From positions 3,064 through 67,063 of the forward strand of contig JAUVDV010000022.1 in NCBI GenBank assembly GCA_030595125.1: 64,000 nt of DNA, given 5' to 3'. Each line of letters begins with the position of its first letter. Position 1 is the stretch's first letter. The DNA is from Deltaproteobacteria bacterium (GTDB lineage: Bacteria; Myxococcota_A; Polyangia; JAAYKL01). Positions 47,728-63,959 of the stretch are shown here, piece by piece. The position numbers were made by a program, and so were the translations under genes. The notes beneath the pieces were generated by a model. The model saw nothing but the letters and a program-made list of their open reading frames with translations. It was not told the origin of the DNA and ran no database searches.

Positions 47728-47729
47728 GG

Positions 47730-49952
47730 TTAAGAAATAGAGTCCAATGCCGCGTTGAAGGTTGCGCTGGGATGGGTTGCCTTTGCAGCCTTTTCCGGAT
47801 CCGGGAAGTAATAGCCTCCAATATCAACAGGACTTCCCTGGGCCGCAATCATTTCATCGGCAATCTTGGCCTCATTATCTCCAAGCTCTTTGGCCAGCTT
47901 GGAGAAACGCGCCTGAAGCGAGCTATCCTCTGTTTGCTCGGCCAGAGCTTGAGCCCAGTAAAGCGCGAGGTAAAAGTGGCTCCCTCTATTATCCAGCTCA
48001 TTGACCTTTCGGGATGGCGACTTCTTGCTGTCCAGGAACTTGCTATTCGCCTCGCCGAGGGTCTTTGCGAAGATCTTGGCTTTTTCGTTGCCGGTGGTGT
48101 TGCCCAGATGTTCCAGTGATTCCGCAAGGGCCAGGAATTCACCAAGGGAGTCCCACCTCAGATGCCCTTCTTCGACAAACTGCTGGACGTGTTTTGGAGC
48201 CGAACCGCCCGCGCCGGTCTCGAACATCCCGCCGCCGTTCATGAGGGGAACTATGGAGAGCATTTTTGCGCTGGTATTCAATTCAAGAATTGGGAAAAGG
48301 TCCGTATTGTAGTCACGCAACACGTTTCCGGTTACAGAAATAGTGTCTTTGCCCTCTCTCATTCTTTCAAATGAAAATCTGGTTGCTTCCGCCACGGGCA
48401 TGGTATGGATTTCCATGCCGTCCGTGTCGTGATTCGGCAAATATTTTTTTACTTTTTCAATGAGTTGCGCGTCGTGAGGCCTGGCCGGGTCAAGCCAGAA
48501 CACGATGGGCGCCCCGGTAGCTTTGGCCCTGGTGATAGCCAGCTTTACCCAATCCTGTATGGGCGCGTCTTTTGCCTGGCACGCGCGCCAGATGTCGCCC
48601 TCTTCCACTTTGTGTTCGAGAATGGCTTTCCCCGAAGCGTCTACAACGCGAATCGTTCCGTCTCCCGGCGCCTCGAATGTCTTGTCGTGGGACCCGTACT
48701 CCTCCGCCTTTTTCGCCATGAGGCCTACGTTGGGAACAGTCCCCATTTTGGAGGGATCAAGAGCGCCGTGCTTGATGCAATTATTTATGGCCTCCTGGTA
48801 CAGGTCTGCATAACAGTGGTCGGGGATTACCGCCTTTACATCGTGCTGCTTGCCGTCGGGCCCCCACATCTTCCCCGAATCACGAATCATTGCAGGCATG
48901 GACGCGTCGATAATAACATCGCTGGGCACATGCAGGTTTGTGATCCCCTTGTCCGAGTTCACCATGGCGACTTGCGGGCGATTCTTATAGACCTCCTTGA
49001 TATCCGCTTCGATCTCCGCTCTTTTATCTTCCGGCAGGCTTGCGATCTTGTTGTAAAGGTCGCCCAGGCCATTGTTGAAATCAACGCCAAGCTCTTTGAT
49101 AACAGCCGCGTGTTTCTCAATGACGTTTCTGTAGAAAACCTTCACGGCATGACCAAAGATCTTTGGGTCGGAGACCTTCATCATTGTGGCCTTCATGTGC
49201 AAGGAAAACAGCACGCCTTTTTCTTTTGCGTCGTCTATCTGCTCCCCGAGGAATTTTGTCAGGGCCTTTTTGCTCATGAAAGTGGAATCAATGACTTCAC
49301 CGGCCAGAAGCGCCAGGTTGTCCTTCAAGACGGTGACCTTGCCGTCCTGAGAAACAAACTCGATCCTTGCGTTCGTTGCCTGCGCCATCGTGATGGACTT
49401 CTCGTTGGAGAAGAAGTCGCCGCTGCTCATCGTGGAGACATGTGTCTTTGAGTCAGGGCTCCATGCACCCATCTTGTGGGGGTTCTTCATTGCATACTGC
49501 TTGACCGCGACTGCCGCTCTGCGATCAGAGTTTCCTTCTCTCAGAACAGGATTTACGGCGCTTCCCAGCGCCACGGAGAACCTGGTCTTGATCTCCCGCT
49601 CTGCGTCGGTTTTCGGATTCTCGGGAAAGTCCGGAATATCGTAGCCTTTGTCCTGCACTTCTTTGAGTGCGGCCTTCAACTGTGGGATTGATGCGCTGAT
49701 ATTGGGCAGTTTGATGATATTGGCCTCCGGCAACATTGCGAGCTCGCCCAGAGCGGTCAGTTCATCAGGTATTTTTTGACTCTCAGTCAGGTTATCGGGG
49801 AAGTTGGCGATAATTCTTCCGGCAAGAGAGATATCCCTTGGAATAACTTCAAAACCGGACCCCTTTGTAAAAGCCTGGACAATGGGGAGTAACGAGTGAG
49901 TTGCCAGTGCCGGCGCCTCATCGGTTTTTGTCCACATAATTTTTTGAGACAT
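47730..49952 (-). CDS. icd: Monomeric NADP-dependent isocitrate dehydrogenase (about 740 aa type)
   Basis: N-terminus [25 protein letters not shown] and collinear similarity over the full length to Azotobacter-type monomeric IDH (recalled). ATG 49952 with GGAGG RBS. Confidence 0.9.
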
Positions 49953-50005
49953 GGATACCTCCACAGTGTTGATTGTGTGTGCGGGTTTTCAAAGCGCTAT
50001 ATTTT

Positions 50006-51859
50006 CTAGTAATAGAGAATATCATCCATCGGATGACGATACAGCGGCTGTTTGAGGCGTTTCTGGTCGAAAACGTGCCCCATCATCCCGATTGTACGTC
50101 CGAGAATAAACAGGCTGTTCAGCCCCTCGAGATCGAGCACCTGTTGCATCTCCTCGGCGGTGAATTCACCGGATGATCGCATCATGTCTATGAACAAAAT
50201 GCCGATACAACCATCGACGTTCATAATCAGGTTGTTGCGCTTGGAGGTCGTTACCTCCTCTACCTTGAGGGCGTAGTCGAGTACTTCGGTACTGGGGAAG
50301 TTCTTCTTGGCGTACTCTTTCATGAGCGTAACGCGCTGGTCCGGATTCTGGACGCTCTTGACGAGGTGCCCGATGCCGGGGATGTTGATACCGGCTTTTT
50401 TCATGTCGGTAACGAACTGCAAGGGCGTCTTCTTGGCATCCGATGCCTCGGAAAAGTGCTTTGCCGCGCCATGCACGGCGCCGCCGAACCGAGGGCCGAT
50501 GGTCAGCATGCCGCTGACGATGCATGAAATCAGATCCTTGCCCGCGCGGGCCGTGACGATGGCGTTGTGCGCGCCGGACACCGCAGCGCCGTGATCGGCG
50601 GTAATCATCACAGCCATCTCGAGGAATTTGGTAGCCCATGGCGGAAGCAACTTCTTGAACCACAGCAGGCTGATAACGCCACCAATACCAATTTCATTCT
50701 TGAACACATCCGAAATGGTCATGGAGCGTTCGGAATCGTAGGGACCGCCGTAGGCCAGCTCGTCGCCGCTGTCGTCCGAAATTGTGGCGACGAAGTTTCT
50801 CGGCCTGCGAATGACTTTTTCTTTCAATGCCTTGGCGTAGTCCATCGGCATTGCGGGCGCCTCTGTCAGCGGTATCGGCTTGTGTTTTCCGTCAGCCACC
50901 AGCTTGTCGAACGTTTCCTTGATTACCACATCGTAGTTCTCGAACGAGTCGGGAACGATTGCGCCCGCTTCGCGCAGGGCTTCGTTCTTGGCGGTGGCTG
51001 TCTCGGCAGCCTTGTCCGCCCTTGCGCCGGCGTGTCCAAACTGAACTTCCGTCTTGAAGATACCTGCGCAGGTGCCGATGTTCCACATTACGAGCGGCTT
51101 GGTAATTCTTCCTTCCTTGAGAGCTGCGACGATTTTGTACTCGTCCTCGCCGCCAACTTCTCCGAGCGCGACTATCATCTTGATTTCGGGATTCGCCTCG
51201 TAGCGGAACAGATGGTCGGTCAGCGTGCTGAAGGGATAACGGTCGCCACCGATCGCCACTCCTTCGTAGAGTCCGTCCGTGTTGCGGCCGATGATGTTGT
51301 TGGCCTCGTTGGAGAGACCGCCCGACTTGGAGACAAATCCGACCGATCCGCTGCGGTGCAGCTTGGACTCGACGATGTTGTCCAGCATGCCGCCGGTGTT
51401 GCCGATCTTGAAGGCGCCGGCCACAATTCCGCCGACCGTGGCGGGACCGATGAGTATCTTTCCGCCGATCTTTTTCGCCTTGGCGGTGACCTCCTTGGCA
51501 TAGCGCTCCGGCATACCTTCCGCGATGACGGAAATCACGCGAAGCTGATCGTAGTCCAGCGCTTCCATCGTCGTGGGGAAGGCGGAACGGAACGACGCAA
51601 AGTTGACCATGGTCTCTATTGTGCTGTGATTCTTCATCACGTCAGCGATTGTCGGATAGATCGGAATGAGGAGCTCTTTTTCCCCCATGAAGGCCTTGTG
51701 AAGCCCTCCTTTCAGCGCGGTCGGGTTGACGATTGCGGTAACGCTCGGCTTTTCTCTACTGCTGACGTAATCGAAGTCCAGCATTCGCTGAATTGCGTTC
51801 CGCTGATAGCCGTAGATTACAGCTTCGGTATTTCTGTCGAATAGCTTGTAGTCTTTCAT
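50006..51859 (-). CDS. aclA: ATP-citrate lyase alpha subunit (CoA-binding + citrate-synthase-like domains)
   Basis: 617 aa. Succinyl-CoA-synthetase-alpha-like N-terminal half with GHAGA phospho-His loop. C-terminal citryl-CoA-lyase/citrate-synthase-like half. GGAGG RBS. Confidence 0.85.
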   Translation of the reverse strand: MKDYKLFDRNTEAVIYGYQRNAIQRMLDFDYVSSREKPSVTAIVNPTALKGGLHKAFMGEKELLIPIYPTIADVMKNHSTIETMVNFASFRSAFPTTMEALDYDQLRVISVIAEGMPERYAKEVTAKAKKIGGKILIGPATVGGIVAGAFKIGNTGGMLDNIVESKLHRSGSVGFVSKSGGLSNEANNIIGRNTDGLYEGVAIGGDRYPFSTLTDHLFRYEANPEIKMIVALGEVGGEDEYKIVAALKEGRITKPLVMWNIGTCAGIFKTEVQFGHAGARADKAAETATAKNEALREAGAIVPDSFENYDVVIKETFDKLVADGKHKPIPLTEAPAMPMDYAKALKEKVIRRPRNFVATISDDSGDELAYGGPYDSERSMTISDVFKNEIGIGGVISLLWFKKLLPPWATKFLEMAVMITADHGAAVSGAHNAIVTARAGKDLISCIVSGMLTIGPRFGGAVHGAAKHFSEASDAKKTPLQFVTDMKKAGINIPGIGHLVKSVQNPDQRVTLMKEYAKKNFPSTEVLDYALKVEEVTTSKRNNLIMNVDGCIGILFIDMMRSSGEFTAEEMQQVLDLEGLNSLFILGRTIGMMGHVFDQKRLKQPLYRHPMDDILYY

Positions 51860-51868
51860 TTTTACCTC

Positions 51869-53137
51869 CTAATTCTCTTCCAGGCCAAGGCTTACAATTT
51901 TGGTCATATGAGTTTCGGGCCCGTAGACTTCGATCGGCACGCCGAGAGTCTCGCCCAACTCGCGCATCAGCCTCAATCCCTCTTTGTAATTGGGGCCGCC
52001 GCGTCTCACATAGATTTTCACATTGTTTTCCTTCAGCTTGTCTTTGTAGTCGTTCAGGGCCTGAATGATGCCGGTAAAGGTCTTCGCAATGTCGGTGAAA
52101 TTGGCGATGCCGCCACCGATGAGAAGAACCTTTCCTTTTGGGTGCTTTGTCCTGGTCATCAGGTCCAGGAGGGTTTTTGTGTACTCGTAGGTCATCTCCT
52201 TGTTCGGGTCGCCGCTGTATTCGCCATAGTTTGCAATCTCTTCCGCTTTTCCGAGATCGGCGATCGTGTCGGCATAGATGACACTTGCGCCGCCGCCGGC
52301 AACGAGAGTCCAAATTCTACCTTCAGGGTTGATCAGGGTCAGCTTGAGCGAAGCGCCGGTCTTCTCGTCGAGACTCTTGATGTACGCCTCTTCCTTGCTC
52401 ATCACTCGCCCGAAAGGCGGAGGGAAATCCGTCTCGCCCCATTTTTCGACGCATTCGTAGAGCGCTGTATCGTCGAGGCGGGCGACCATGTCGAGCGGGA
52501 AAATATTATCTCCACTCATCGCGAACGGATTGATCTCGAGGTAGGCGAAATGCAGATCTGCATAGTACTTGTAAAGACCCTTGATGTACTTTGACACCAA
52601 CTTCTTCTTCTTGTCGTCCAGCTCCGCCGGGAGCTTAGCGGCCACGTCGATGGTCTCGATATCCGTGCTGGCCGGAACATCTATTTCCGACACGGTATCC
52701 CAGACTGACTCGATATCCATGCCGCCCTTGGTCGAGAAATAAATGGTATCGCCGGTCACATTGGATTTGATGGCAAGATAGTACTCTTCCTCGTGTTTGA
52801 CCAACGGTTCGATAATGAAATGAGTGAGCGAATCGGTGATCTTGCCGACCTTTGTCTCCTTGTTCATCCGCTCACCGATCCACTTGCGCACCTCGTCCAG
52901 GTTCTTGTCGATGAGCAGAAGCCCGTGCTTGCCGCGCTTGCCAAAAAGCTGGTCCGGCTTTGCCACGAGGGGCTTGGTCTTGAGCCAGGGATTTTCTTTT
53001 ACCAGAGTATCCCAGTTGGTCTTTTCGTCCACGAGCGCGATCTCACCCTCGTATCCGAAGCTCCCTCCCAGATATTCTGGCAGATATTTCGCCAGCATCC
53101 GCTTGCCATAGAATTCTCTTATTCCCCGTTGTGCCAT
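51869..53137 (-). CDS. aclB: ATP-citrate lyase beta subunit (ATP-grasp)
   Basis: 422 aa ATP-grasp resembling succinyl-CoA-synthetase-beta. Immediately upstream of aclA (9-nt gap). AAGGAG RBS. Confidence 0.85.
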   Translation of the reverse strand: MAQRGIREFYGKRMLAKYLPEYLGGSFGYEGEIALVDEKTNWDTLVKENPWLKTKPLVAKPDQLFGKRGKHGLLLIDKNLDEVRKWIGERMNKETKVGKITDSLTHFIIEPLVKHEEEYYLAIKSNVTGDTIYFSTKGGMDIESVWDTVSEIDVPASTDIETIDVAAKLPAELDDKKKKLVSKYIKGLYKYYADLHFAYLEINPFAMSGDNIFPLDMVARLDDTALYECVEKWGETDFPPPFGRVMSKEEAYIKSLDEKTGASLKLTLINPEGRIWTLVAGGGASVIYADTIADLGKAEEIANYGEYSGDPNKEMTYEYTKTLLDLMTRTKHPKGKVLLIGGGIANFTDIAKTFTGIIQALNDYKDKLKENNVKIYVRRGGPNYKEGLRLMRELGETLGVPIEVYGPETHMTKIVSLGLEEN

Positions 53138-53207
53138 TTTCGACTCCTTTTTCTATTCTTTCCCTGATTCTTTTCCCTGTTTATTTTGCTCTTGATCGCG
53201 CCGTGTC

Positions 53208-55133
53208 CTAGAGGAAATTCAGCATACCGCCCGCCAGAATGATTTTTTTCTGACGCTCTGAAAGTTTGGCGCTTACCTTGAACGTTGTTCCCTTGGTGAC
53301 GTTCTTCACTACCGCGACACCGTCGCCGGCGATAACGTCGCGAACCTTCTCAATCTCGAGTTTGTCACCCTGGTCGATCGCGTCGAGGTCGTCGGGGTTT
53401 TCGAAATTGAACGGAATGATGCCGAAATTGATGAGGTTGGCTATGTGAATGCGCTCGTACGACTTGGTAATGACCGCCTTCACGCCCATGTACATCGGAC
53501 AGAGCGCCGCGTGCTCACGCGAAGAACCCTGACCGTAGCTCAGGCCGCCTACTATGATGTTGAACTCGCCGTTCTTCTGGATTTTCTTCGCCCGGTTGAA
53601 AAACTCGGGATCGAGGACCTCAAAAAGAAACTCGGAATACTTGGGAACATTGGAACGATATTTCATTTTCGCGCCGGCGGGTATGATGTGATCCGTCGTG
53701 ATCTCATCACCGACCTTTATAGTCACTTCGGCGTTTATCGCTTCGGGCAACGGGTCGTTCTTCGGCGGGTCGCCAATGTTGGGCCCGCGAACGATCTCCA
53801 CCTTGCTCGGATCCTCTGCGGGAGGAACGATCATGGTGTCATCCACCAGGAACTGCTCGGGCATCTCTACTTTTGGATACTCCATGTCGAGGTCGCGCGG
53901 ATCGGTAATCTTTCCGGTGAGCACGGCTGCCGCCGCCGTTTCGCAGCTTACCAGGTAAGCATCTGCGCTCTTGGTGCCCGATCTGTTCAGGAAATTGCGG
54001 TTTGAGGTCCTCAGCGATACCGCATCTGACTTGGGCGACTGACTGTTGCCGATGCAGAAGCCGCAGGCGTTTTCCGCAAGCCGTCCGCCGGCTGAGAGCA
54101 GGTCGAAAAGCGACCCCTCTTTGGTCAGCATCTGGACAACCTGACGCGAACCGGGAGCAATAACGAAGCTCAGATCGGGGGGCGCCGCTCCCTCTTTTAC
54201 AATGCGCGCCGTGGTGGTGAGATCGACATACGAGGAATTGGTGCAGCTTCCCACGCAAACCTGATCGACACTCAGGCCGGCGAGTTCTTTTACTGTCTTG
54301 ATGTTACCCGGGCTGTGAGGCGCTGCCGCCATGGGCACGACTTCGCTCAGGTTCAGCTCCACTACCTTGGAGTATTCGGCGTCATCGTCGGCCTTGAACT
54401 CCGCCCAATCGTTTTCGCGATTTTGCCCTTTCAGGAACTTGCGCGTCTCCTGATCGCTTGGGAAAACAGAGGTCGTAACGCCACACTCGGCGCCCATGTT
54501 GGTGATAGTGGCGCGCTCGGGGACCGAAAGGGTCGCCACTCCGGGGCCACCGTACTCCAGCACAACACCCACATTACCCTTGGTAGTGAACATTTCCAGA
54601 ACCTTGAGTATGACATCCTTTGCCGCAACCCAGGGTTGAAGCTGACCCGTCAGGTTGATTTTGACGACGTCGGGACAAGTGAGATAGAAAGCGCCGCCAC
54701 CCATGGCAACCGCCACGTCCAGGCCTCCGGAGCCCATGGCAATCATTCCGATGCCGCCGCCCGTGGGCGTATGACTGTCGGAACCGAGCAATGTCTTGCC
54801 CGGCTTGCCGAATCGCTCGAGGTGTACCTGATGGCAGATGCCGTTGCCGGAACGGGAAAGATAGATCCCGTACTTCGAGGCCGCCCCTTGCAGGTATTTC
54901 TGATCGTCCGCGTTTTCGTAACCTATTTGAATTGTATTATGATCAACATAACTCACGGCAAGTTCGTTCTTGACACGTTTGATGCCCATCGCCTCGAACT
55001 GCAAGTACGCCATCGTCCCGGTCGCATCCTGCGTCAAAGTCTGATCGATGCGGATGGCGATCTCTTCTCCAGGCTCCCATTTTCCTTCTACGATGTGTTG
55101 CTCAATGATTTTCCGTGCCAGGCTTTTTCCCAT
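53208..55133 (-). CDS. acn: Aconitate hydratase, 641-aa fused-domain aconitase-family enzyme
   Basis: Aconitase-family FeS-ligand regions (GSDSHTPTGGG, VGSCTNSSY, SNRNFLNRSG). GAGAGG RBS. First gene of the acn-aclB-aclA-icd run. Confidence 0.85.
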   Translation of the reverse strand: MGKSLARKIIEQHIVEGKWEPGEEIAIRIDQTLTQDATGTMAYLQFEAMGIKRVKNELAVSYVDHNTIQIGYENADDQKYLQGAASKYGIYLSRSGNGICHQVHLERFGKPGKTLLGSDSHTPTGGGIGMIAMGSGGLDVAVAMGGGAFYLTCPDVVKINLTGQLQPWVAAKDVILKVLEMFTTKGNVGVVLEYGGPGVATLSVPERATITNMGAECGVTTSVFPSDQETRKFLKGQNRENDWAEFKADDDAEYSKVVELNLSEVVPMAAAPHSPGNIKTVKELAGLSVDQVCVGSCTNSSYVDLTTTARIVKEGAAPPDLSFVIAPGSRQVVQMLTKEGSLFDLLSAGGRLAENACGFCIGNSQSPKSDAVSLRTSNRNFLNRSGTKSADAYLVSCETAAAAVLTGKITDPRDLDMEYPKVEMPEQFLVDDTMIVPPAEDPSKVEIVRGPNIGDPPKNDPLPEAINAEVTIKVGDEITTDHIIPAGAKMKYRSNVPKYSEFLFEVLDPEFFNRAKKIQKNGEFNIIVGGLSYGQGSSREHAALCPMYMGVKAVITKSYERIHIANLINFGIIPFNFENPDDLDAIDQGDKLEIEKVRDVIAGDGVAVVKNVTKGTTFKVSAKLSERQKKIILAGGMLNFL

Positions 55134-55495
55134 TGCCGTACCTCTCTTTCTTCACTTCCTTGATTGAAACGGGAAACAAGCACCCTATTCCCGTTTTGCT
55201 TTTTCCTGATTTTGCTTATGATTTATATCATCTTGCACTTTTGCATTGAGGTTTCTCTTGTAGCATTTTCCTACATGCCGCTACTTCTCAGCGGCCCAAG
55301 AATTGCTCATCAATTCCAAACTTTTCCCTAAGATATTCAACTGGCAATGCCATCAATTTTTTCTTTTGGCAATACTGTGCAAATGTTCCTTTAGAACGGG
55401 ACGACAAATGAGATTTGTCACGAAAATGTGGAAATAAACGAAGATCTTATCCAGATCGAAAGCACCTGACTAACGATGGCGATCCAGATCGGATT

Positions 55496-56365: not shown

Positions 56366-56417
56366 TTTACTGCTCCTTCCGAACACTACGCTGACAGGTT
56401 AATTCTGTTCCCGCGTT

Positions 56418-56446
56418 CTTGACACTTTCACTATCAGACGATATTG
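56418..56446 (+). promoter_or_regulatory. Possible sigma-70-type promoter for rnf operon (TTGACA-17-TATTGC)
   Basis: TTGACA at about 56418, weak -10. By-eye only. Confidence 0.25.
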
Positions 56447-56503
56447 CGTTTTTTAACAATTGCAACATATCTGTTTTCACCTTCACAGAGGATGCTATCA
56501 GAC

Positions 56504-57853: not shown

Positions 57854-58830
57854 CAAATCAACGACTTGTCGTTTCAATATCTCCACATATCAAGAACGGA
57901 CGCACCGTGCGGCGCATGATCGTGACCACAATAGCGGCGCTCGCGCCGGCCGCGCTCTGGGGATTCTATCAGTTCGGCCTCGATGCCCTCGCGCTCGTCG
58001 CGGTTGGAATCACCGCCGCTTGCGCCACCGAAGCACTGATCACCCGATTGGCCAAAAAGCGTTCCTCTCTGGGTGACGGCCACGCAGTGCTCACTGGGCT
58101 TGTGCTCGCCTTGCTCGTCCCGGCCGGCGTCCCGTTCTGGCTCGTAATCGTGGGAGCGGTCATGGCCATCCTGGTGGGCAAGATGCCGTTCGGTCCTCTG
58201 GGAGGAGCACCCATTTATCCTGCGCTCGTGGGATTATTGATCGTCGCGACATCCTGGCCCACCGAGATACGTAGCTATGTCCAGCCGACCACCGCCCCGG
58301 TAGAGCTCAAGGTAGAGGGCGCGGCCGACGCTGAAACTCCCCGTGACGCGGTATTCATCGACCCGAGCGACGAGGCCGAATACAAAACTGCAGACCTCTT
58401 CCTGGGTAAACAGGTCGGGCCGATCGGCGCGATTTCCCCGTTGCTTCTGTTGCTCGGGGGGCTGTTCTTGATCCTGCGCCGGGTCGCCCGGTGGCAGGCG
58501 CCACTCGGATTCCTTCTCGGCATGGGCCTTGCCGCCGGGATCGGCCACGCGCTCGACCCGAGCGGTTGTGCTTCTGCGTCTTTTCATCTGTTCACCGGTT
58601 CGGCCATGTTCGGCGCGTTTTTCCTCTGCACCGACTGGTCGTCAACACCCGTGACCCCGTGGGGTATGTTCCTGTTCGGCTTGATCGGCGGCGGATTGGC
58701 GGTTCTTCTCCGAATCGCCGGCCTTCCCTACGGAGCCGTGCCGTGGGCCATCGTGATCATGTCACTGGCCACACCGATCTTCGACCGCATCACCCCCACG
58801 CCTTTTGGAAAGGTGGCGAGCCATGCGTAA
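57850..58830 (+). CDS. rnfD: RnfD/NqrB-family membrane subunit
   Basis: Polytopic membrane protein. Motif FFLCTDWSSTPVTP (FMN-attachment Thr region). Confidence 0.9.
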   Translation: MTNQRLVVSISPHIKNGRTVRRMIVTTIAALAPAALWGFYQFGLDALALVAVGITAACATEALITRLAKKRSSLGDGHAVLTGLVLALLVPAGVPFWLVIVGAVMAILVGKMPFGPLGGAPIYPALVGLLIVATSWPTEIRSYVQPTTAPVELKVEGAADAETPRDAVFIDPSDEAEYKTADLFLGKQVGPIGAISPLLLLLGGLFLILRRVARWQAPLGFLLGMGLAAGIGHALDPSGCASASFHLFTGSAMFGAFFLCTDWSSTPVTPWGMFLFGLIGGGLAVLLRIAGLPYGAVPWAIVIMSLATPIFDRITPTPFGKVASHA

Positions 58831-59428
58831 CAAAATCTGGTTCATGGCGGTCGTGCTCGGTATCGTGGCGTTCCTCGCCGGCCTGGCTCTGGCCGGGGTA
58901 AAAGGAATGACCACCCCGATCATTGAAAAACGCATCCTGGAACAAAAGATCAAACCCAGCCTCGATGAATTTTTCGGGAGTCTCGATCTGGAAAACGATT
59001 GCATTGAGGATCGACAGGTTCTCGATCTCGGCAAGGACGCCCGTGGCCGAAAGCAAGTCACTACTCTGTTCCTGGGCAAAAAGGGCGGCAAGGTCGTCGT
59101 CGCGGCGCTCAAGACCAAGGCCGCGGGTTTCGGCGGCGACATAGAGGTGCTCACTGCTTTCAGCCTCGACGACAAGAAGATCCTCGGCGTCAAGACGCTC
59201 AGCCAATCCGAGACAATGGGTCTTGGAGCACGCGTTTCCAACGATGCCGAGCCGTTTATCCAACAGTTTAGCGGAATGAATTATTCGGATGGGGTCGCAA
59301 TGCGCTCGAACGGCGGGTTGGTTGACGCCATCTCCGGAGCAACGGTTTCGTCGGTGGCATTCACGGCGGCGGTGATCAGGGCGACCGAACTCGTAGAAAC
59401 AAACGTGGGCTCGGCCGCGGCGAATTAG
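58823..59428 (+). CDS. rnfG: RnfG/NqrC-family FMN-binding subunit
   Basis: N-terminal TM. FMN_bind motif ISGATVSSVA. Start overlaps rnfD stop. Confidence 0.85.
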   Translation: MRNKIWFMAVVLGIVAFLAGLALAGVKGMTTPIIEKRILEQKIKPSLDEFFGSLDLENDCIEDRQVLDLGKDARGRKQVTTLFLGKKGGKVVVAALKTKAAGFGGDIEVLTAFSLDDKKILGVKTLSQSETMGLGARVSNDAEPFIQQFSGMNYSDGVAMRSNGGLVDAISGATVSSVAFTAAVIRATELVETNVGSAAAN

Positions 59429-59440
59429 GAAGGCTCGAAT

Positions 59441-60076
59441 ATGAGGACATTAACCCAGGAGTTCACCAAGGGGCTTTGGGAACAGATACCGCCTTTCCGG
59501 CTGGTGCTCGGGCTATGCCCCACCCTGGCGGTTACCAAATCACTCGAGGGCGGATGGGGCATGGGCCTGGCCACTACGTTTGTGCTCGTATGCTCCAATA
59601 TCCTCATCTCGGCCCTGAGGAACGTCATTCCGCCAAAGGTGCGCATCGCCACCTTCATTGTGATCATCGCCACTTTCGTCGTGATCACCGAGCTAGTCAT
59701 GAAGGCCTACACGCCAATGCTCTCGGAAACGCTGGGGGTTTTCATTCCACTCATTGTGGTCAACTGCATCATCCTCGGCAGGGCGGAGGCGTTTGCCTCG
59801 AAAAACGGAATGGGGCGTTCTCTGCTCGACGGCCTGGGCATCGGCCTCGGGTTCACCCTGGCGCTCGCGGTGCTGGGCGGCCTTCGAGAATTGCTTGGCA
59901 CCGGCAAGCTGACCATGTTCGCCCAGGCGAATCTGGACTTGACAATCATCCCGCTGGGAGAGGGCCGTGAGTTTCTGTTCAAATTTATGGTCGACCCGCC
60001 CGGCGCGTTTGTCTGTCTGGGCGCAATGCTCCTGCTGATGAATTTGATAAGCGAACGATCGGCCAAGGCCGCGTGA
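59441..60076 (+). CDS. rnfE: RnfE/NqrD-family membrane subunit
   Basis: 211 aa, 6 TM. Typical RnfE N-terminus (GLWEQIPPFRLVLGLCPTLAVT). Confidence 0.9.
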   Translation: MRTLTQEFTKGLWEQIPPFRLVLGLCPTLAVTKSLEGGWGMGLATTFVLVCSNILISALRNVIPPKVRIATFIVIIATFVVITELVMKAYTPMLSETLGVFIPLIVVNCIILGRAEAFASKNGMGRSLLDGLGIGLGFTLALAVLGGLRELLGTGKLTMFAQANLDLTIIPLGEGREFLFKFMVDPPGAFVCLGAMLLLMNLISERSAKAA

Positions 60077-60086
60077 GGAGAAAACA

Positions 60087-60668
60087 ATGACCGAATATCT
60101 GCTTCTCGTCGTTTACGCCGTCCTGGTCAACAACATCCTTTTGGCCCAGTTCCTGGGCAACTGTCCTTTCCTGGGAACCTCTCAAAAAATGAGCACGGCG
60201 ACCGGGATGGCCATGGCGGTTATTTTTGTTCTGACTTGCGCCGGGGTGATCACCTGGGCGGTCCAATGGTACGTGCTGGTTCCCCTCGAATTGGAATACC
60301 TGCAAACAATAGCGTTCATTTTGGTAATTGCCGCGCTCGTTCAGTTGGTGGAGATCGTGCTGCAAAAGACAGCTCCTGCGCTCTACAGCGCTCTGGGAAT
60401 TTTTCTGCCACTCATCACCACGAACTGCGCCGTGCTCGGTGTTGCGATCATCAATATCAAAGAGGATTACGATTTCATGCACACCGTGGTCTTCTCTTTT
60501 GCCTCGGCGATCGGGTTCGGTCTGGCCCTGGTTCTGTTCGCCGGGCTCAGAGAGCGGTTCGCCCTTTCCCGGATGCCCAAGCCGCTTCAGGGCACCGTGT
60601 CGGGCCTTATCACCGCCGGGCTCATGGCCCTGGCCTTCCAGGGTTTCTTGAAGCTCGGAGAGGGATAG
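60087..60668 (+). CDS. rnfA: RnfA/NqrE-family membrane subunit
   Basis: 193 aa, 6 TM. Typical RnfA N-terminus (LLAQFLGNCPFLGTS). Confidence 0.9.
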   Translation: MTEYLLLVVYAVLVNNILLAQFLGNCPFLGTSQKMSTATGMAMAVIFVLTCAGVITWAVQWYVLVPLELEYLQTIAFILVIAALVQLVEIVLQKTAPALYSALGIFLPLITTNCAVLGVAIINIKEDYDFMHTVVFSFASAIGFGLALVLFAGLRERFALSRMPKPLQGTVSGLITAGLMALAFQGFLKLGEG

Positions 60669-60672
60669 ACAA

Positions 60673-62751
60673 ATGGAAGTACTCGCAGCAGCGCTTGTCA
60701 TCGGCGGAATCGGCACGGTCGCAGCGATCGGTCTGGGCGTGGCCGCCAAGGTTTTCGCCGTGTACATCGACCCCAAGGTGATCGAAGTCGACGAGGCGCT
60801 TCCCGGCGCAAACTGTGGCGGTTGCGGCTTTACGGGCTGCGCGGCGGCGGCGACGGCCGTTGTCAAGGGCAAGGCCCCGGCAAACGTCTGCATCGTGGGT
60901 GGCCAGGAGGTCGCAGAGGCAGTGGCCGGGATCATGGGCATGTCGGTGGAGGAGGGCGAGGTCGGAATCGCCGAGCTGGGATGCAAATACGATGTAAGGA
61001 CTGCCCATCTCCTCTTCGACTACGACGGAGTGGAGGACTGCCGGGCTGCTGCTCTGGTAAACGGCGGCGGCAAGGTGTGTTCCATGGGTTGTCTGGGATT
61101 CGGCACCTGTATAAGCGCCTGTCAGTTCGGCGCTCTTTACAGGGGCGCGGACGGCCTGCCCGCAGTGATCAAGGAAAGGTGCACGGCCTGTGGCGCCTGC
61201 GAGCGGATCTGCCCCAAGGGGATCATCCGAGTACAGACGCCGAGCCGGAAGTTCACGCATATCCAGACCGATGACGATTGCGTGGCTCCTTGCCAGGCTA
61301 CCTGTCCGGCGCAAATCGATATTCCGGCGTACATCGCCGCAATAGGGCAAGGCGATTACGAAAGCGCTGTATGCATCATCAAGGAAAGCAACCCGTTCCC
61401 GCTGGTCTGCGGACGCGTCTGCCCGCATGTCTGCGAGTCGGCCTGCCGACGCAACGATATAGATGAACCTGTAAACATCAATCACCTCAAGAGGTTCGCA
61501 GCTGACTTCGAGATGAATTCAGGCAAGCGATTCTTGCCGCAAGTCCTGCCCCCAAACGGCAAGCGGGTAGCTATAATCGGCGGGGGGCCATCCGGTCTGA
61601 CCTGCGCTTATTACCTGGCCCGCATGGGTTATCAAGTCAAGGTTTTCGAAGCCATGCCCAAGCCCGGCGGGATGCTCCTCTACGGCATTCCCGAGTACCG
61701 CCTGCCAAAGAAAACCCTCGCATGGGAGATAGACGGCATCCTCGAACTGGGAGTGGAGATCGAGTGCAACAAGGCGCTCGGCAAGGACTTCACAATCGAA
61801 GATCTTTACGAGCAGGGTTACGACGCAGTCTATTTGGCGGTCGGAGCCTGGGACTCACGGCGTCTCGGCGTGCCTGGCGAGCAAGACTTCCCACAGGTGG
61901 CGAGCGGCACCGAGTTCCTGATCAAGCGCGGCCTCGGCGAAGAAACGCCGGTCGGACGTGATGTCATCATCGTGGGCGGCGGCAACACGGCAATGGATGC
62001 GGCGCGCACCTCCTGGCGGCTCGGAGCCGAGAACGTTTACCTGCTCTACAGGCGCTCCCGCAAGGAGATGCCAGCAAACGATATCGAGGTGGACGAGGGC
62101 GAGCACGAGGGAATCAAGTACCACTTCCTGGCCGCCCCGACCAAACTGGTCGGCAAGGACGGCAAGCTCGATGCCATGGAGTTCCTCAAGATGGAGCTGG
62201 GCGAGCCAGATGCGTCCGGACGTCGCCGCCCGGTGCCGATAGAAGGTTCGGAAACGGACATCCAGGCGAACAACGTCTTCAGCGCTATCGGTCAATCACC
62301 CGATCTCACGTGCCTGGACGCAGAGGGTGTCGCGAGCGAGTTGAACCGCACCAAATGGAATTCAATCGTTGCCGCCGATGGCACCATGCAGACCGATGTT
62401 TCCAACATCTTCTCTGGTGGTGACGCATGGCGCGGCGCGGCGACCGCAGTAGAGGCAATCAGAGACGGCCGTTTCGCGGCGCGTTCCATCAGCCTGTTCC
62501 TCTCGGGCGAGGAGTTGACCTTGCCCTCCAACTGGTACGCCAAGGCGCCCAAACTCCCCGGCATCGATGAGGGAATCAATCTCGACAAATCCGATCGCGC
62601 AAAGATGATCGAGCTCTCCGTTGATGATCGGCGCATGAACTTCAACGAGGTGGAGCTCGGGATCACCGAAGAGATGGCCAAAAAAGAGAGCGGTCGCTGC
62701 CTGCAGTGCGGCGAGGTCTGTTATCAGGGTTACAGGGAGAAGGCGTCATGA
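60673..62751 (+). CDS. rnfB: RnfB fused in-frame to a GltD-like FAD/NAD(P)H oxidoreductase module
   Basis: aa 1-190: RnfB features (N-terminal TM, CGGCGFTGC cluster, two Fer4 motifs). aa about 200-692: GltD/NfnB-like (two N-terminal Cys clusters CQATCP ... CGRVCPHVCESAC, FAD site IIGGGPSGLTCAYYLA, NAD(P) site VIIVGGGNTAMD). Single continuous ORF. Confidence 0.85.
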   Translation: MEVLAAALVIGGIGTVAAIGLGVAAKVFAVYIDPKVIEVDEALPGANCGGCGFTGCAAAATAVVKGKAPANVCIVGGQEVAEAVAGIMGMSVEEGEVGIAELGCKYDVRTAHLLFDYDGVEDCRAAALVNGGGKVCSMGCLGFGTCISACQFGALYRGADGLPAVIKERCTACGACERICPKGIIRVQTPSRKFTHIQTDDDCVAPCQATCPAQIDIPAYIAAIGQGDYESAVCIIKESNPFPLVCGRVCPHVCESACRRNDIDEPVNINHLKRFAADFEMNSGKRFLPQVLPPNGKRVAIIGGGPSGLTCAYYLARMGYQVKVFEAMPKPGGMLLYGIPEYRLPKKTLAWEIDGILELGVEIECNKALGKDFTIEDLYEQGYDAVYLAVGAWDSRRLGVPGEQDFPQVASGTEFLIKRGLGEETPVGRDVIIVGGGNTAMDAARTSWRLGAENVYLLYRRSRKEMPANDIEVDEGEHEGIKYHFLAAPTKLVGKDGKLDAMEFLKMELGEPDASGRRRPVPIEGSETDIQANNVFSAIGQSPDLTCLDAEGVASELNRTKWNSIVAADGTMQTDVSNIFSGGDAWRGAATAVEAIRDGRFAARSISLFLSGEELTLPSNWYAKAPKLPGIDEGINLDKSDRAKMIELSVDDRRMNFNEVELGITEEMAKKESGRCLQCGEVCYQGYREKAS

Positions 62752-63959
62752 GAAGACCTCTTTTGCTCGGCTGGGCCGTGATTTGCGGCGTGGTGTTTAT
62801 TTGGGGATGCACAGATCAGGAAACCGCGTCCGACGAACCTTCGACTACGGCGCAAGCGCCGTTCGAGAGGATCCCGGGAGGCGACGAAGATCCAGGGGAC
62901 AACGGACCGGACGACTCCACCGAGCTGTCCGCCGTACCCGGCGACATGGGAAAGGTTGCGTTTACGCATTTCACGCACGCCTCGAACTCCAAAAAAGGAT
63001 ACGGCATCCCCTGCCGCACGTGCCATCACACAACACCTCCGGACGAAGACCCCGCCCAGGGTTGCACGGGCGAAGGCTGCCACTACCCGAGCGAAAAGAC
63101 ACCCGACCCGGCCCATGCCGGACCCGACGACAACATGCTGCTCCTTGGCGATGATTCGGCCACGGCCCCGGTAGCGTTCAATCACTTCACGCATGCTTCG
63201 TCTCACGGGTACAAAACCGCGTGCACCCAATGCCACCACACCGGTGATCTCATTGGTTGCTCCGAGTGCCACGAAAAGATTGCGACAAAAGACGACGATG
63301 GCAAGGTTATCCCCAAGACCAAGCGGGCCTTTCACCTGAAGTGCAACGGTTGTCACGAGGCGATCAAAAAAAGCGACCCCGATTCAAAGGCTCCCGTGAA
63401 ATGTGCGGATTGCCACGGTGGCAGTGCGCCGGCTCGCCTGCCCGGCAGTCTGACCCTGGAGCGGGCCTACCACCTGAGCTGTGTAGGATGTCACAATCGG
63501 GCAAAGATGGCCGGGATGGGAACCCCGGCTGTAGATTGCGACGATTGTCACAAAGAGGGCTCGCCCAAGATACCGGGCCTTGAGCCCAAAGAGAAGAAAG
63601 TGGAGGAGGAACCGGCGCCGAAGGAGCAGCCGGCCCCGAGCGCACCGACCGCGCAAGCTGCCGACGCCGGAGCCGCTGAGCCGGCAAAGGACGGGGAACA
63701 AAACAAGGGCCCGGACAAGATCCTCATTGACCACGCCAAAAAGGCCAAATCGGGCACACCGTTTCCACACGCCGCACACCAGGAACTCGGCGAAGAATGC
63801 GCCAAGTGTCATCACAAGGGCCTCGATGATCCGTCCTGTCGCAACTGCCACAGCGAGACAGCTGATGCCAAGAAAATCTATCACGAGATCTGCATTTCCT
63901 GTCACAAGGAAAACGGGATCTCGGCCAGCTGCGCAAGCTGCCATCCCAAGGGCGAGTAG
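62748..63959 (+). CDS. Lipoprotein multiheme cytochrome c (about 12 heme-binding motifs)
   Basis: ATG overlaps the rnfB-gltD stop (ATGA). Lipobox IWGCT. 11 CxxCH plus one Cx4CH. Ala/Pro/Glu-rich linker in the middle. Confidence 0.85.
   Translation: MRRPLLLGWAVICGVVFIWGCTDQETASDEPSTTAQAPFERIPGGDEDPGDNGPDDSTELSAVPGDMGKVAFTHFTHASNSKKGYGIPCRTCHHTTPPDEDPAQGCTGEGCHYPSEKTPDPAHAGPDDNMLLLGDDSATAPVAFNHFTHASSHGYKTACTQCHHTGDLIGCSECHEKIATKDDDGKVIPKTKRAFHLKCNGCHEAIKKSDPDSKAPVKCADCHGGSAPARLPGSLTLERAYHLSCVGCHNRAKMAGMGTPAVDCDDCHKEGSPKIPGLEPKEKKVEEEPAPKEQPAPSAPTAQAADAGAAEPAKDGEQNKGPDKILIDHAKKAKSGTPFPHAAHQELGEECAKCHHKGLDDPSCRNCHSETADAKKIYHEICISCHKENGISASCASCHPKGE

Follow-up and report, generated by a model that had tools for sequence, protein, structure and literature searches.

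Background

In bacteria, ATP-citrate lyase (ACL) occurs mostly in autotrophs that use the reverse tricarboxylic acid (TCA) cycle. Does an ACL gene block lying beside an rnf operon and a multiheme cytochrome gene then encode a module for CO2 fixation? This question is raised by a 64 kb window (the whole stretch of DNA that was analyzed) from a narrow lineage of uncultured sediment bacteria, labelled Myxococcota or 'Deltaproteobacteria' in databases. A first-pass annotation had proposed that ACL here marks a reverse TCA cycle, and that Rnf, driven by the membrane potential or, via the cytochrome, by donors in the periplasm, supplies it with reduced ferredoxin. The explanation that we favor, and to which we give an even chance, is that this Rnf connects cytoplasmic NADPH with periplasmic cytochromes by ion-coupled electron transfer and is not dedicated to reducing ferredoxin for CO2 fixation, and that the locus consists of three separately transcribed units, namely acn-aclB-aclA-icd, an FAH-family gene, and rnfCDGEAB with the cytochrome gene.

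Results and discussion

Gene organization

All genes of the first-pass annotation were recovered where it had placed them, in two neighboring runs: icd, aclA, aclB, acn and the FAH-family gene on the minus strand, and rnfCDGEAB plus the cytochrome gene on the plus strand. The minus-strand run comprises the following features.

47730..49964, minus strand: icd, monomeric NADP-dependent isocitrate dehydrogenase (IDH) (PF03971, 1291 bits; TIGR00178, 1276 bits, cutoff 950)
50006..51859, minus strand: aclA, ATP-citrate lyase alpha subunit (CoA_binding, Ligase_CoA and Citrate_synt domains by Pfam)
51869..53137, minus strand: aclB, ATP-citrate lyase beta subunit (ATP-grasp and citrate-binding domains; PF24948, 272 bits; PF16114, 298 bits)
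53208..55133, minus strand: acn, aconitate hydratase, 641-aa PRK07229 type (NF005558, 913 bits, cutoff 612)
55134..55495, no strand: 362-bp AT-rich spacer 5' of acn, where the promoter for the ACL genes is presumed to lie
55496..56365, minus strand: FAH-family hydrolase/decarboxylase (PF01557, 242 bits)

About 1.3 kb separates the starts of acn and rnfC, with the FAH gene in the gap, as described earlier. The ACL block and rnf were also said to be divergently adjacent; they are adjacent but not divergent, since the divergent partner of rnfC is the FAH gene. The spacer sets the ACL unit apart from the FAH gene and gives the block an upstream region of its own, so that the ACL and rnf blocks probably have separate promoters; a consensus promoter scan of 55134..55495 returned no convincing site. 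Among solved structures, the FAH-family protein is closest to the diketo-deoxyrhamnonate hydrolase 8gsr (189 bits), followed by 4dbf (174 bits). The start codon of icd is uncertain by about four codons, and its product has a 99% identical counterpart in the related locus L006. Nearby there are also genes for an IS110 transposase and for a DEAD-box helicase that is specific to the lineage.

Synteny of the ACL and rnf blocks

Conservation in relatives, which the first-pass annotation had put forward as a check, was found over a short range only. Three loci, L006, L007 and L092 (AclA 81-95% identical), retain the ACL-rnf layout, and the FAH gene stands between rnf and acn only in these three and the window. 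Adjacency is lost in L093 (AclA 76%), L094 (70%) and L009, and ACL adjoins rnf at none of the approximately 20 other large-RnfB loci examined; the contig of L008 begins at acn, which leaves the rnf side outside it. The neighborhood is limited to one narrow lineage in which AclA is at least 81% identical. Each block has partners of its own. The acn-aclB-aclA core is conserved among all ACL relatives, and its conservation with the gene below reaches further than that with rnf: this gene is next to it in L006, L092 and L094, and is present as split genes in L008.

42397..45447, plus strand: 1016-aa fusion protein joining a CoA-transferase/acetyl-CoA-hydrolase-like domain to a GNAT acetyltransferase (Pat-like) and a deacetylase (HDAC-type) (Pfam, NCBIfam)

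That ACL and rnf came together in this lineage through a chance rearrangement without functional meaning, the two systems being independent, has in our estimate slightly less than an even chance. The differing conserved partners (the CoA-transferase-GNAT-HDAC gene for acn-aclBA, the cytochrome gene for rnfCDGEAB) speak for it, as do the transposase and helicase genes nearby and the outgroup neighbors 5' of rnfC, which are all different (rubrerythrin, DnaJ/TPR, antitoxin). Against it, the layout has survived divergence of RnfC to 83-89% and of AclA to 81%, and NADP(H) is handled by both units. Given the persistence of the layout down to 81% AclA identity, there may be some selection for the adjacency.

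ACL identity and flux through the TCA arm

The window encodes a true ACL. AclA carries the FGHAGA phospho-histidine motif in its CoA-binding/CoA-ligase part, and its C-terminal domain is a citryl-CoA lyase resembling citrate synthase. As in Methanothrix (Methanosaeta) concilii ACLY-A/B (6hxi, 6znw), there are two subunits that together hold all domains and align end to end, AclA with 804 bits to 6hxi_B and AclB with 576 bits to 6hxi_A. AclA also scores 769 bits with human ACLY, whereas the scores to Chlorobium limicola AclAB, of the reverse TCA cycle, are only 367 (AclA, 6hxj_B) and 172 bits. No succinyl-CoA synthetase alpha subunit reaches 90 bits with AclA, and AclB has just 56 bits with citryl-CoA synthetase 6hxq_B. 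The paralogy with succinyl-CoA synthetase or citrate synthase against which the first-pass annotation had cautioned is ruled out by the 804 and 576 bits to the M. concilii subunits.

By these alignments, the subunits belong to the archaeal/eukaryote-like ACLY-A/B clade and not to that of the classical reverse-TCA bacteria; beyond a small bacterial clade, their next relatives are those of Thermoplasmatota and Bathyarchaeota. Because this bacterial clade sits beside archaeal ACLs, the equation of ACL with reverse-TCA autotrophy is not simply transferable. Genes for 2-oxoglutarate:ferredoxin oxidoreductase, pyruvate:ferredoxin oxidoreductase and fumarate reductase were absent from the 64 kb window, and ACL also works oxidatively elsewhere, in Desulfobacter postgatei (Moller et al. 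1987, as cited in PMC9768450). A reverse TCA cycle is thus not established. The unit, which starts with acn, encodes a TCA arm (2-oxoglutarate, isocitrate, citrate, acetyl-CoA plus oxaloacetate) of a genuine archaeal/eukaryote-like ACL and a monomeric NADP-IDH, whose flux direction is not readable from sequence.

The arm could be oxidative or biosynthetic, with ACL acting, as it does in D. postgatei, as an ATP-conserving citrate synthase and NADP-IDH making NADPH, the electrons of which an NADPH-type Rnf would pass into a periplasmic cytochrome/Qrc/menaquinone chain in anaerobic respiration. This reading, which we judge rather improbable, differs from our favored explanation in direction only, the wiring being compatible. 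Aconitase, a citrate-forming enzyme and IDH are what the oxidative branch leading to 2-oxoglutarate consists of, and Qrc-like and Hmc-like complexes are encoded in the same window. The locus can be likened, by description, to Desulfobacter postgatei and D. hydrogenophilus, where ACL serves in the TCA cycle and, in the former, in acetate oxidation (Moller et al. 1987, as cited in PMC9768450), and to Geobacter, where monomeric NADP-IDH is the main NADPH source of the respiratory Geobacteraceae and a separate GltD-type enzyme, SfrAB, is thought to hand NADPH electrons to the chain (PMC2669807). Both are anaerobic respirers of the former 'Deltaproteobacteria'; a membrane-bound, Rnf-fused NADPH module is not described there. 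The CoA-transferase-family domain encoded beside the ACL block would also suit an oxidative arm, but it is fused to the GNAT and deacetylase domains and scores far under family cutoffs, and is more likely regulatory. IDH, moreover, is not a constant member of ACL clusters.

Relocation of the pyridine-nucleotide site in Rnf

The plus-strand run comprises the following genes.

56504..57853, plus strand: rnfC variant (RnfC_N domain and two 4Fe-4S motifs kept; FMN loop and NADH motif lost)
57850..58830, plus strand: rnfD, membrane subunit (PF03116)
58823..59428, plus strand: rnfG, periplasmic FMN-binding subunit (PF04205; best NCBIfam match NF045876, RnfG_DVU2794)
59441..60076, plus strand: rnfE, membrane subunit (PF02508, 217 bits; two conserved cysteines, in GLCPTL and VNCIILG)
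60087..60668, plus strand: rnfA, membrane subunit (PF02508, 191 bits; two conserved cysteines, in GNCPFLG and TNCAVLG)
60673..62751, plus strand: large rnfB, 692 aa (Pfam domains and PDB matches)
62748..63959, plus strand: 12-heme cytochrome c with c3-like modules, 403 aa (PF02085, 98 bits; heme motifs)

Comparison of subunit domains and motifs confirmed the earlier label of a variant Rnf. RnfC has no match to PF01512 or PF10531 and reaches only 215 bits with TIGR01945, under the cutoff of 246; GVIRQGSETKS replaces the canonical GIVGMGGAxFP, and RFADQDP replaces NGAECEP. Among 116 homologues, the FMN and NADH motifs are degenerate in all 55 aligned ones of at least 40% identity, and the canonical forms are confined to homologues of 32% identity or less. 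They are likewise missing in 9/9 rnfC genes adjoining a fused rnfB. Residues 1-195 of the large RnfB hold an N-terminal transmembrane helix, the PF04060 Fe-S domain and a dicluster domain of ferredoxin type; all but the first three of these residues match the RnfB proteins of 7zc6 and 9eri (4-195). Fused to these is a GltD/NfnB-like module with two [4Fe-4S] clusters and sites for FAD and NADP(H) (residues 200-684; 9bov_A, 456 bits; 9n5u_A, 'NfnA', 452; 8oh5_C, 388; NfnI 5jca_L, 344; GltD, 220). Its GGGNTAxD...YRRSRxEMPA signature is invariant across 27 homologues; this homology and the YRRSR motif suggest specificity for NADPH rather than NADH. These comparisons indicate that the pyridine-nucleotide site has, in effect, shifted from RnfC to RnfB. 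With an NADP(H)/FAD module on RnfB and no FMN/NADH site on RnfC, the complex departs from the usual ferredoxin:NAD+ enzyme, and it does not follow that it makes reduced ferredoxin for the cycle, as had been proposed.

The flavinylation motif of RnfG (DAISGATVSS) is intact, and its SGAT is kept in 8/9 related loci. In RnfD, the site of the covalent-FMN threonine is DAET-P when aligned with 9eri_D and 7zc6_D, compared with TTAT-PL in solved Rnf structures, and is T, S, P, A, Y or D over 13 members of the variant family; it lies in a variable loop of uncertain alignment, and the RnfD of the window still has threonine there.

The start codon of the cytochrome gene overlaps the rnfB stop as ATGA, as had been noted, by which the two are predicted to be translationally coupled. 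Its description as a 12-heme lipoprotein holds for the hemes, with 11 CxxCH motifs and one CxxxxCH (CTGEGCH) that aligns with CxxCH in three orthologues having 12 CxxCH each; a lipoprotein is plausible, the N-terminus ending in FIWGC where the orthologous proteins show ALGC or LGGC, which are more canonical. These orthologues follow rnfB in L002, L004 and L096 with all 12 heme sites aligned. A cytochrome gene usually accompanies rnf operons of the large-RnfB type: a 4-heme cytochrome lies 3' of rnfB in L012-L014, and one of 3-4 hemes (L016, L018, L028) or 10 hemes (L021) precedes rnfC. The operon of Desulfarculus baarsii, with a fused RnfB plus ApbE, has no cytochrome gene.

In our favored explanation, electrons would pass between NADPH, the FAD and Fe-S clusters of RnfB, the Fe-S of RnfA/E, the FMN of RnfG and cytochrome c, coupled to Na+/H+ movement, and a periplasmic cytochrome pool would connect to a Qrc-like menaquinone reductase, the genes of which lie 20 kb upstream. 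For any link that there may be between the ACL block and Rnf, NADPH, which the adjacent NADP-dependent IDH consumes or produces, is the only plausible shared currency.

Both RnfC 4Fe-4S motifs are kept throughout, including all 69 variant sequences, and RnfC therefore presumably still exchanges electrons with some partner in the cytoplasm, which may be ferredoxin; a path running from NADPH to cytochrome alone may be incomplete. This conservation also fits a site-swapped ferredoxin:NADP+ oxidoreductase, in which NADPH would bind at the RnfB-GltD end and ferredoxin or flavodoxin at the Fe-S-only RnfC, electrons would still traverse RnfG and RnfD in a complete loop, with the cytochrome as a side branch or accessory. 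The describers of this Rnf type inferred an RnfC partner other than NAD(H) (PMC5109826), the D. baarsii operon manages without a cytochrome, and the operon cytochrome DhcA is dispensable under most conditions in D. alaskensis (PMC4215793). We nevertheless consider such an enzyme unlikely: the RnfD covalent-FMN residue required for the return path in solved Rnf/Nqr structures is not conserved, the cytochrome gene is adjacent or translationally coupled at most loci, and RnfC is the fastest-evolving subunit (L002/L004 and the window share 53% identity in RnfC, compared with 77-86% in RnfB, RnfA and RnfE, with RnfE at 84% in both L002 and L004).

Least likely is that Rnf supplies ferredoxin to a CO2-fixing reverse TCA cycle: the ACL is genuine and comes with aconitase and IDH, most bacterial ACLs are those of reverse-TCA autotrophs, the layout persists in four contigs, RnfB keeps a ferredoxin-type dicluster domain, and the two RnfC 4Fe-4S motifs could dock ferredoxin, but the shallow synteny, the presumed promoter region of the ACL block, the NADP(H)-type Rnf and a window free of ferredoxin-dependent oxoacid oxidoreductases and fumarate reductase leave little to suggest such a module, and the ACL is of the archaeal-like clade. 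Reversibility of Rnf complexes, as described in PMC11889175, would also be in its favor.

Comparison with known systems

By domain content, the operon is of the Desulfobacula toluolica Tol2 type (large RnfB), known beforehand from genome papers, including a cytochrome in the rnf2 cluster of Desulfococcus multivorans (PMC5109826). Carriers named there, with reference to Wohlbrand et al. 2013, are D. toluolica Tol2, D. multivorans (Rnf2) and Desulfobacterium autotrophicum. Shared features are an RnfB some 700 aa long in which a site for binding nicotinamide dinucleotide joins the usual Fe-S domains, an RnfC without Complex1_51K and SLBB domains, an in-cluster cytochrome gene and the order rnfCDGEAB. 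The window differs in its 403-aa, 12-heme, probable lipoprotein cytochrome overlapping rnfB, in place of a 15-kDa cytochrome, in a Myxococcota-labelled host outside Desulfobacteraceae, and in the adjoining ACL block.

The rewiring would parallel, by analogy, the origin of Na+-NQR from Rnf, in which an NADH module replaced RnfB while RnfC decayed into NqrA (PMC4014512). Both have a homologous membrane core, a membrane-anchored Fe-S flavoprotein in the RnfB position that oxidizes, or in the window would oxidize, pyridine nucleotide, and an RnfC homologue without NAD/FMN site. NqrF, however, is FNR-like (2Fe-2S/FAD) and not GltD-like, NqrA lacks the Fe-S clusters that the RnfC of the window keeps, and NqrB keeps covalent FMN and reduces quinone with no cytochrome partner; membership in Nqr was rejected on the GltD-like module, the retained RnfC Fe-S and the cytochrome partner.

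The putative RnfG-cytochrome exit would likewise parallel the Rnf of Methanosarcina acetivorans, which does not use NAD(P), keeps the two RnfC 4Fe-4S motifs and has RnfG as proposed periplasmic exit to a cytochrome c, the co-transcribed multiheme MmcA (PMC4023990). Its RnfB, unlike that of the window with its NADP(H)/FAD module, is normal and accepts electrons from ferredoxin; its cytochrome gene lies upstream, and the host is an archaeon with methanophenazine. Desulfovibrio also pairs rnfCDGEAB with a co-transcribed multiheme cytochrome, the decaheme DhcA (PMC4215793), and the RnfG of the window is closest to the DVU2794-type model; the Desulfovibrio cytochrome is the first operon gene, however, and the complex is treated in the literature as a ferredoxin:NADH oxidoreductase. 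A Desulfohalobiaceae RnfC (P0236) lacks the FMN loop as well.

Gene organization of the ACL and rnf regions

The first-pass annotation had described an ATP-citrate lyase (ACL) block, acn-aclB-aclA-icd, next to an rnf operon and a 12-heme lipoprotein cytochrome gene, and had read the group as a module supplying ferredoxin for CO2 fixation. All of the named genes were found using the ORF list, Pfam and NCBIfam, and the genes called in L011, a separately assembled version of this DNA, agree with those of the window. The observation is confirmed and its interpretation is only partly supported. The ferredoxin role is the least supported part, given an RnfB with an NADP(H) module and an RnfC without FMN/NADH motifs. 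(Below, L handles denote related loci compared with the window and P handles denote homologous proteins.)

Genes and spacers of the ACL and rnf regions, in window positions
47730-49964, minus strand: icd, monomeric NADP-IDH (TIGR00178, 1276 bits; cutoff 950)
50006-51859, minus strand: aclA (ORF list, Pfam)
51869-53137, minus strand: aclB (ORF list, Pfam)
53208-55133, minus strand: acn (NF005558, 913 bits; cutoff 612)
Between acn and the FAH-family gene: AT-rich spacer of 362 bp
55496-56365, minus strand: FAH-family gene
56504-57853, plus strand: rnfC, beginning 138 bp from the FAH start codon
57850-58830, plus strand: rnfD
58823-59428, plus strand: rnfG
59441-60076, plus strand: rnfE
60087-60668, plus strand: rnfA
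60673-62751, plus strand: rnfB
62748-63959, plus strand: cytochrome gene, its ATG overlapping the rnfB stop codon as ATGA

The overlap of the cytochrome gene with the last rnf gene is exactly as first annotated. The description of the rnf operon as divergent from the ACL block holds in that the two are neighbors, but rnfC diverges from the FAH-family gene and acn has a spacer of its own. A shared divergent ACL/rnf promoter is ruled out by the 138-bp rnfC/FAH spacer and the separate 362-bp acn spacer. A consensus promoter scan gave fewer sites than shuffled sequence and was therefore uninformative.

Identity and clade of the ATP-citrate lyase

AclB contains ATP-grasp and ACL-specific citrate-binding domains (PF24948, 272 bits, cutoff 83; PF16114, 298 bits). 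It scored 576 bits against Methanothrix concilii ACLY-A/B (6hxi_A), 454 against human ACLY and 172 against the Chlorobium limicola enzyme, and 56 bits against both the succinyl-CoA synthetase beta subunit and the citryl-CoA synthetase large subunit. AclA (617 aa) carries PF02629, PF00549 and PF00285 in a single protein, corresponding to a CoA-binding/CoA-ligase part with a fused C-terminal citryl-CoA lyase (citrate-synthase-like) domain, and its phospho-histidine loop, FGHAGA, is present. It aligned end-to-end with the solved M. concilii protein (6hxi_B, 804 bits) and scored 769 bits against human ACLY, only 367 against C. limicola AclA, 81 against citryl-CoA synthetase and fewer than 90 against succinyl-CoA synthetase alpha. 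The aclB and aclA genes are co-oriented with a 9-bp gap, an order repeated in L006-L009 and L092-L094. Beta subunit, alpha subunit and gene adjacency, the three features tested, all identify a two-subunit ACL. AclA and AclB are thus authentic by their bit scores against solved structures and by the FGHAGA loop, and the first-pass annotation's worry that they might be succinyl-CoA synthetase or citrate synthase paralogues can be set aside.

Among the best 120 AclA relatives in a large protein collection, the nearest form a small bacterial clade (70-95% identity) labelled as Myxococcota or Pseudomonadota MAGs, followed by a second tier (63-66% identity) of Thermoplasmatota, Bathyarchaeota and other archaea; no classical reverse-TCA bacteria occur among these 120. 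The ACL block adds a bacterial member to an enzyme clade that was already known, and an ACL of this archaeal-like clade is, taken alone, a poor marker for autotrophy. Horizontal transfer of the block was considered and not adopted: its bulk GC is lower (0.52-0.56), yet its GC3 (0.63-0.73) lies inside the range of the other genes. Because GC3 is not anomalous, any transfer from archaea would be old.

An Rnf complex with a fused RnfB and an altered RnfC

All six subunits, RnfCDGEAB, had Pfam and NCBIfam matches, and PDB matches were obtained to the C, D and B chains of 7zc6, 9eri and 8ahx, as in the homologous core of a canonical six-subunit Rnf. RnfB is 692 aa long. Its residues 1-195 correspond to RnfB in 7zc6 and 9eri and comprise a transmembrane helix, a PF04060 Fe-S domain and a single ferredoxin-type dicluster domain. 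A GltD/NfnB-like FAD/NADP(H) module with Fer4_20 and Pyr_redox_2 domains spans residues 200-684 (9bov_A, 456 bits; 9n5u_A 'NfnA', 452; 8oh5_C, 388; NfnI 5jca_L, 344; GltD, 220), with matches to solved structures reaching an E value of about 1e-135. Canonical RnfB has a membrane anchor and Fe-S/ferredoxin-like domains only, and the window protein differs from it accordingly. The GGGPSG and GGGNTAMD...YRRSR motifs are present, and across 27 aligned homologues there is no variation in the cluster cysteines, in the FAD motif GGGPxGL or in GGGNTAxD...YRRSRxEMPA. We take the arginine pair in YRRSR to suggest NADPH, as in GltD-family enzymes.

RnfC aligns over its full length with solved RnfC chains. 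Its FMN loop reads GVIRQGSETKS in place of GIVGMGGAxFPT and its NADH motif RFADQDPH in place of NGAECEPY, so that neither canonical motif, GxGGAxFP or N(G/A)AECEP, is present; Pfam gave no PF01512 (Complex1_51K) or PF10531 (SLBB) match, and the protein falls below the TIGR01945 cutoff. In a set of 116 homologues, degenerate motifs were seen in all 55 aligned at 40% identity or above, and canonical motifs only at 32% or below. The FMN/NADH motifs were likewise absent from 9/9 RnfC proteins encoded beside a fused rnfB. Both CxxCxxCxxxCP motifs are kept throughout the 116, which suggests that RnfC still has a redox partner. By these features the pyridine-nucleotide site lies on RnfB, not RnfC.

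Precomputed Pfam labels assigned a Complex1_51K domain to some partners of fused RnfB (P0176, P0177 and the Desulfarculus baarsii RnfC); the sequences themselves are without the FMN loop and ECEP, and they were not counted as canonical. The match of D. baarsii RnfC to Complex1_51K is weak, and P0177, its close homologue of the same length, comes from a contig that also encodes a 57%-identical fused RnfB. RnfC proteins P0236 (from a Desulfohalobiaceae MAG), P0200, P0201, P0231, P0191 and P0225 are also without the GxGGAxFP loop and the ECEP motif. As these lie outside the Tol2-type clade described below, loss of the RnfC NADH site may be more widespread in Desulfobacterota Rnf than is usually assumed.

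In RnfD, which scores below the NqrB cutoffs, the position of the covalent-FMN threonine (TTAT-PL in solved complexes) falls in a poorly aligning loop and is occupied by T/S/P/A/Y/D across the family. The window protein retains a threonine (DAET-P); the aligned residue is S/P/A/Y/D in 10 of 12 relatives, with the alignment uncertain. The RnfG flavinylation motif is intact (DAISGATVSS, fitting (S/T)GA(S/T)), as are the paired cysteines of RnfA (GNCP and TNC) and RnfE (GLCP and VNC).

Tol2-type Rnf is defined by an RnfB of ~700 aa that additionally carries a nicotinamide-dinucleotide binding site and by an RnfC without Complex1_51K and SLBB domains (PMC5109826), and the window proteins have both properties. 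This architecture is known from Desulfobacula toluolica Tol2, Desulfococcus multivorans Rnf2, whose cluster contains a 15-kDa cytochrome, and D. autotrophicum, and according to the describing authors its mode of action 'awaits experimental verification' (PMC5109826). The shared architecture, together with 56-61% identity to fused RnfB proteins of Desulfarculales and other Desulfobacterota, points to a relationship between the window Rnf and the D. toluolica/D. multivorans type. Na+-NQR differs on two counts: its NqrF is an FNR-like 2Fe-2S/FAD/NADH subunit, whereas the NAD(P)H module here is GltD-like, and its NqrA is without Fe-S clusters, whereas RnfC here keeps two CxxCxxCxxxCP motifs. The complex adds a new member to a variant that is known but uncharacterised, this one accompanied by a probable 12-heme lipoprotein and coming from a different lineage.

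The large-RnfB variant is common: fused RnfB proteins made up at least 120 distinct 90%-identity clusters in a single search. A metagenome contig scan with the RnfB alignment was dominated by YRRSRxEMP, which is common to all GltD-like proteins, and full-length fusions accounted for 17 of its 80 loci. Five of the metagenome loci (L015, L019, L022, L026 and L034) encode full-length RnfB-GltD fusions (40-50% identity) with no further rnf genes within 10 kb; by sequence, these orphans are membrane-anchored NADP(H)/Fe-S proteins.

Rnf is usually auto-annotated as a ferredoxin:NAD+ oxidoreductase and is then used as such in metabolic models of uncultured anaerobes. Three changes occur jointly in the large-RnfB complex: an NADP(H) module is gained on RnfB, the FMN/NADH site is lost from RnfC, and the RnfD flavin site is apparently not conserved. 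That they travel together across many lineages is the addition of this analysis, and it provides a concrete hypothesis for cultured sulfate reducers. Given these changes, models that let a large-RnfB Rnf make or consume ferredoxin with NADH are probably wrong.

Conservation of the ACL and rnf neighborhoods

The identical layout, cytochrome-rnfBAEGDC/fah-acn-aclB-aclA-icd, was found in L006 and L007 (AclB 96% and 93% identical) and L092 (AclA 81%). The clustering noted in the first-pass annotation therefore recurs in close relatives, but rnf is absent beside ACL in three others: in L093 (AclA 76%) the gene after acn-aclB-aclA encodes another kind of IDH, of Iso_dh type; L094 (AclA 70%) has acn-aclB-aclA followed by a CoA-transferase-GNAT-HDAC gene and no icd; and L009 likewise has no rnf. 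The L008 contig begins at acn. On the Rnf side, the nearest outgroups (L002, L004 and L096; RnfB 74-79%) keep rnfCDGEAB-cytochrome among unrelated neighbors, and ACL was found within 10 kb in none of the 17 more distant fused-RnfB loci, nor in D. baarsii. The contig scan with AclB gave four true ACL loci, too few for statistics, and was supplemented by three protein-identity look-ups. The two comparisons identify two conserved units: acn-aclBA, in many cases accompanied by the CoA-transferase-GNAT-HDAC fusion, and rnfCDGEAB plus a cytochrome. Juxtaposition of ACL and rnf is limited to one shallow clade.

In L092, aclB (8658-9915) was split into a 302-aa and a 136-aa ORF, reflecting either a frameshift introduced in assembly or a pseudogene. 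In L002 (15441-17755, minus strand, and 13242-14288, plus strand), labelled 'Ca. Eisenbacteria', RseC_MucC and DUF6125 genes come after the rnf-cytochrome operon, and a separate NfnAB-like pair lies 2 kb beyond.

Proposed electron path, and flow through the TCA arm

The cytochrome has 11 CxxCH and one CxxxxCH heme sites, all 12 of which align with CxxCH sites in three orthologues, and its N-terminus ends in a lipobox-like FIWGC (ALGC or LGGC in orthologues). Most loci have a periplasmic multiheme cytochrome gene with the rnf operon: a 12-heme protein after rnfB in the window, L002, L004 and L096, a 4-heme protein after rnfB in L012-L014, a 3-4-heme protein before rnfC in L016, L018 and L028, and a 10-heme protein before rnfC in L021.

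We infer a path in which electrons from NADPH would enter the FAD/Fe-S centers of RnfB, pass to the Fe-S center of RnfA/E and then to the FMN of RnfG, and leave to cytochrome c, with the transfer coupled to ion movement. Its logic is supported by two precedents. In Methanosarcina Rnf, which makes no use of NAD(P), the RnfC Fe-S motifs are retained and electron delivery from RnfG to a cytochrome has been proposed (PMC4023990), and Na+-NQR was derived from Rnf when an NADH-oxidising subunit replaced RnfB and RnfC decayed into NqrA (PMC4014512). As caveats, the D. baarsii operon includes ApbE but no cytochrome, and DhcA, the decaheme cytochrome co-transcribed with Desulfovibrio rnf, is dispensable in D. 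alaskensis under most conditions (PMC4215793). The D. baarsii locus (L095; cultured strain DSM 2075, CP002085.1, 1946778-1964865) contains rnfCDGEA, fused rnfB and apbE, with RseC nearby. If the complex were an ion-coupled NADPH:cytochrome c oxidoreductase, it would represent a second, independent Nqr-like invention and a missing link from cytoplasmic NADPH to the periplasmic cytochrome networks of sulfate reducers and their relatives.

Two further respiratory clusters occur on the plus strand of the window. A qrcABCD-like menaquinone reductase (33612-38363; QrcA above the NCBIfam cutoff, QrcB, QrcC and QrcD below) is flanked by GCV_H-like domain proteins (32515-33615 and 38376-39014) and could plausibly either drain or supply the periplasmic cytochrome pool. 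A trio encoded at 26171-28562 comprises an Fe-S protein resembling HmcB, a membrane protein resembling HmcC/NrfD and a small cytochrome of c7/c3 type; genes for a histidine kinase and a sigma-54 response regulator come next (28603-32149).

The TCA arm may run in either direction. For an oxidative or biosynthetic flow, D. postgatei is described, as cited in PMC9768450, as running ACL as an ATP-yielding citrate synthase, and in Geobacteraceae respirers monomeric NADP-IDH is the main NADPH source while a separate enzyme passes NADPH electrons into the chain (PMC2669807). The Qrc-like and Hmc-like complexes of the window could accept periplasmic cytochrome electrons. A reductive flow is favored by the fact that ACL in bacteria is mostly a reverse-TCA enzyme. 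The 64-kb window holds no 2-oxoglutarate:ferredoxin oxidoreductase, pyruvate:ferredoxin oxidoreductase or fumarate reductase, and no other reverse-TCA-cycle genes beyond the ACL block. Whichever way the arm runs, IDH and this Rnf are predicted to share NADPH, not ferredoxin.

A more elaborate form of the reductive flow would have the Tol2-type Rnf be an Nqr-like, ion-coupled NADPH:cytochrome c oxidoreductase running in reverse in this lineage. The 12-heme lipoprotein would take electrons from hydrogenase, formate dehydrogenase, minerals or a syntrophic partner, the ion gradient would drive these periplasmic electrons onto NADP+, and the NADPH would feed reductive carboxylation by the neighboring NADP-IDH in an ACL-dependent reverse TCA cycle. 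We regard this combination, taken jointly, as quite improbable; if true, it would be a dedicated 'electrons-in' autotrophy module in an anaerobic Myxococcota-like bacterium.

Other genes around the ACL block

The CoA-transferase-GNAT-HDAC fusion gene of the window (42397-45447, plus strand) encodes a protein of ~1010 aa with a CoA-transferase/acetyl-CoA-hydrolase-like domain, a Pat-like GNAT acetyltransferase and an HDAC-type deacetylase. Its counterparts (L006, 15414-17912; L092, 14067-17123; L094, 12020-15043; L008, 5312-8422) lie next to ACL in relatives with AclA identity as low as 70%, a deeper association than that of rnf. A possible role for the fusion is as a switch for protein acetylation/deacetylation that senses acetyl-CoA and is tied to the acetyl-CoA-producing enzyme. 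Between this gene and icd lie ~2.3 kb (45448-47729), including a DEAD-box RNA helicase gene (46311-47663, minus strand), that L006 and L092 lack, the two genes being directly adjacent there; this segment is a lineage-specific insertion. Between the Qrc-like cluster and the ACL neighborhood sit an IS110-family transposase gene (40695-41807, minus strand) and an AAA_14/DUF4143 ATPase gene (39079-40302, minus strand), which hint at local rearrangement.
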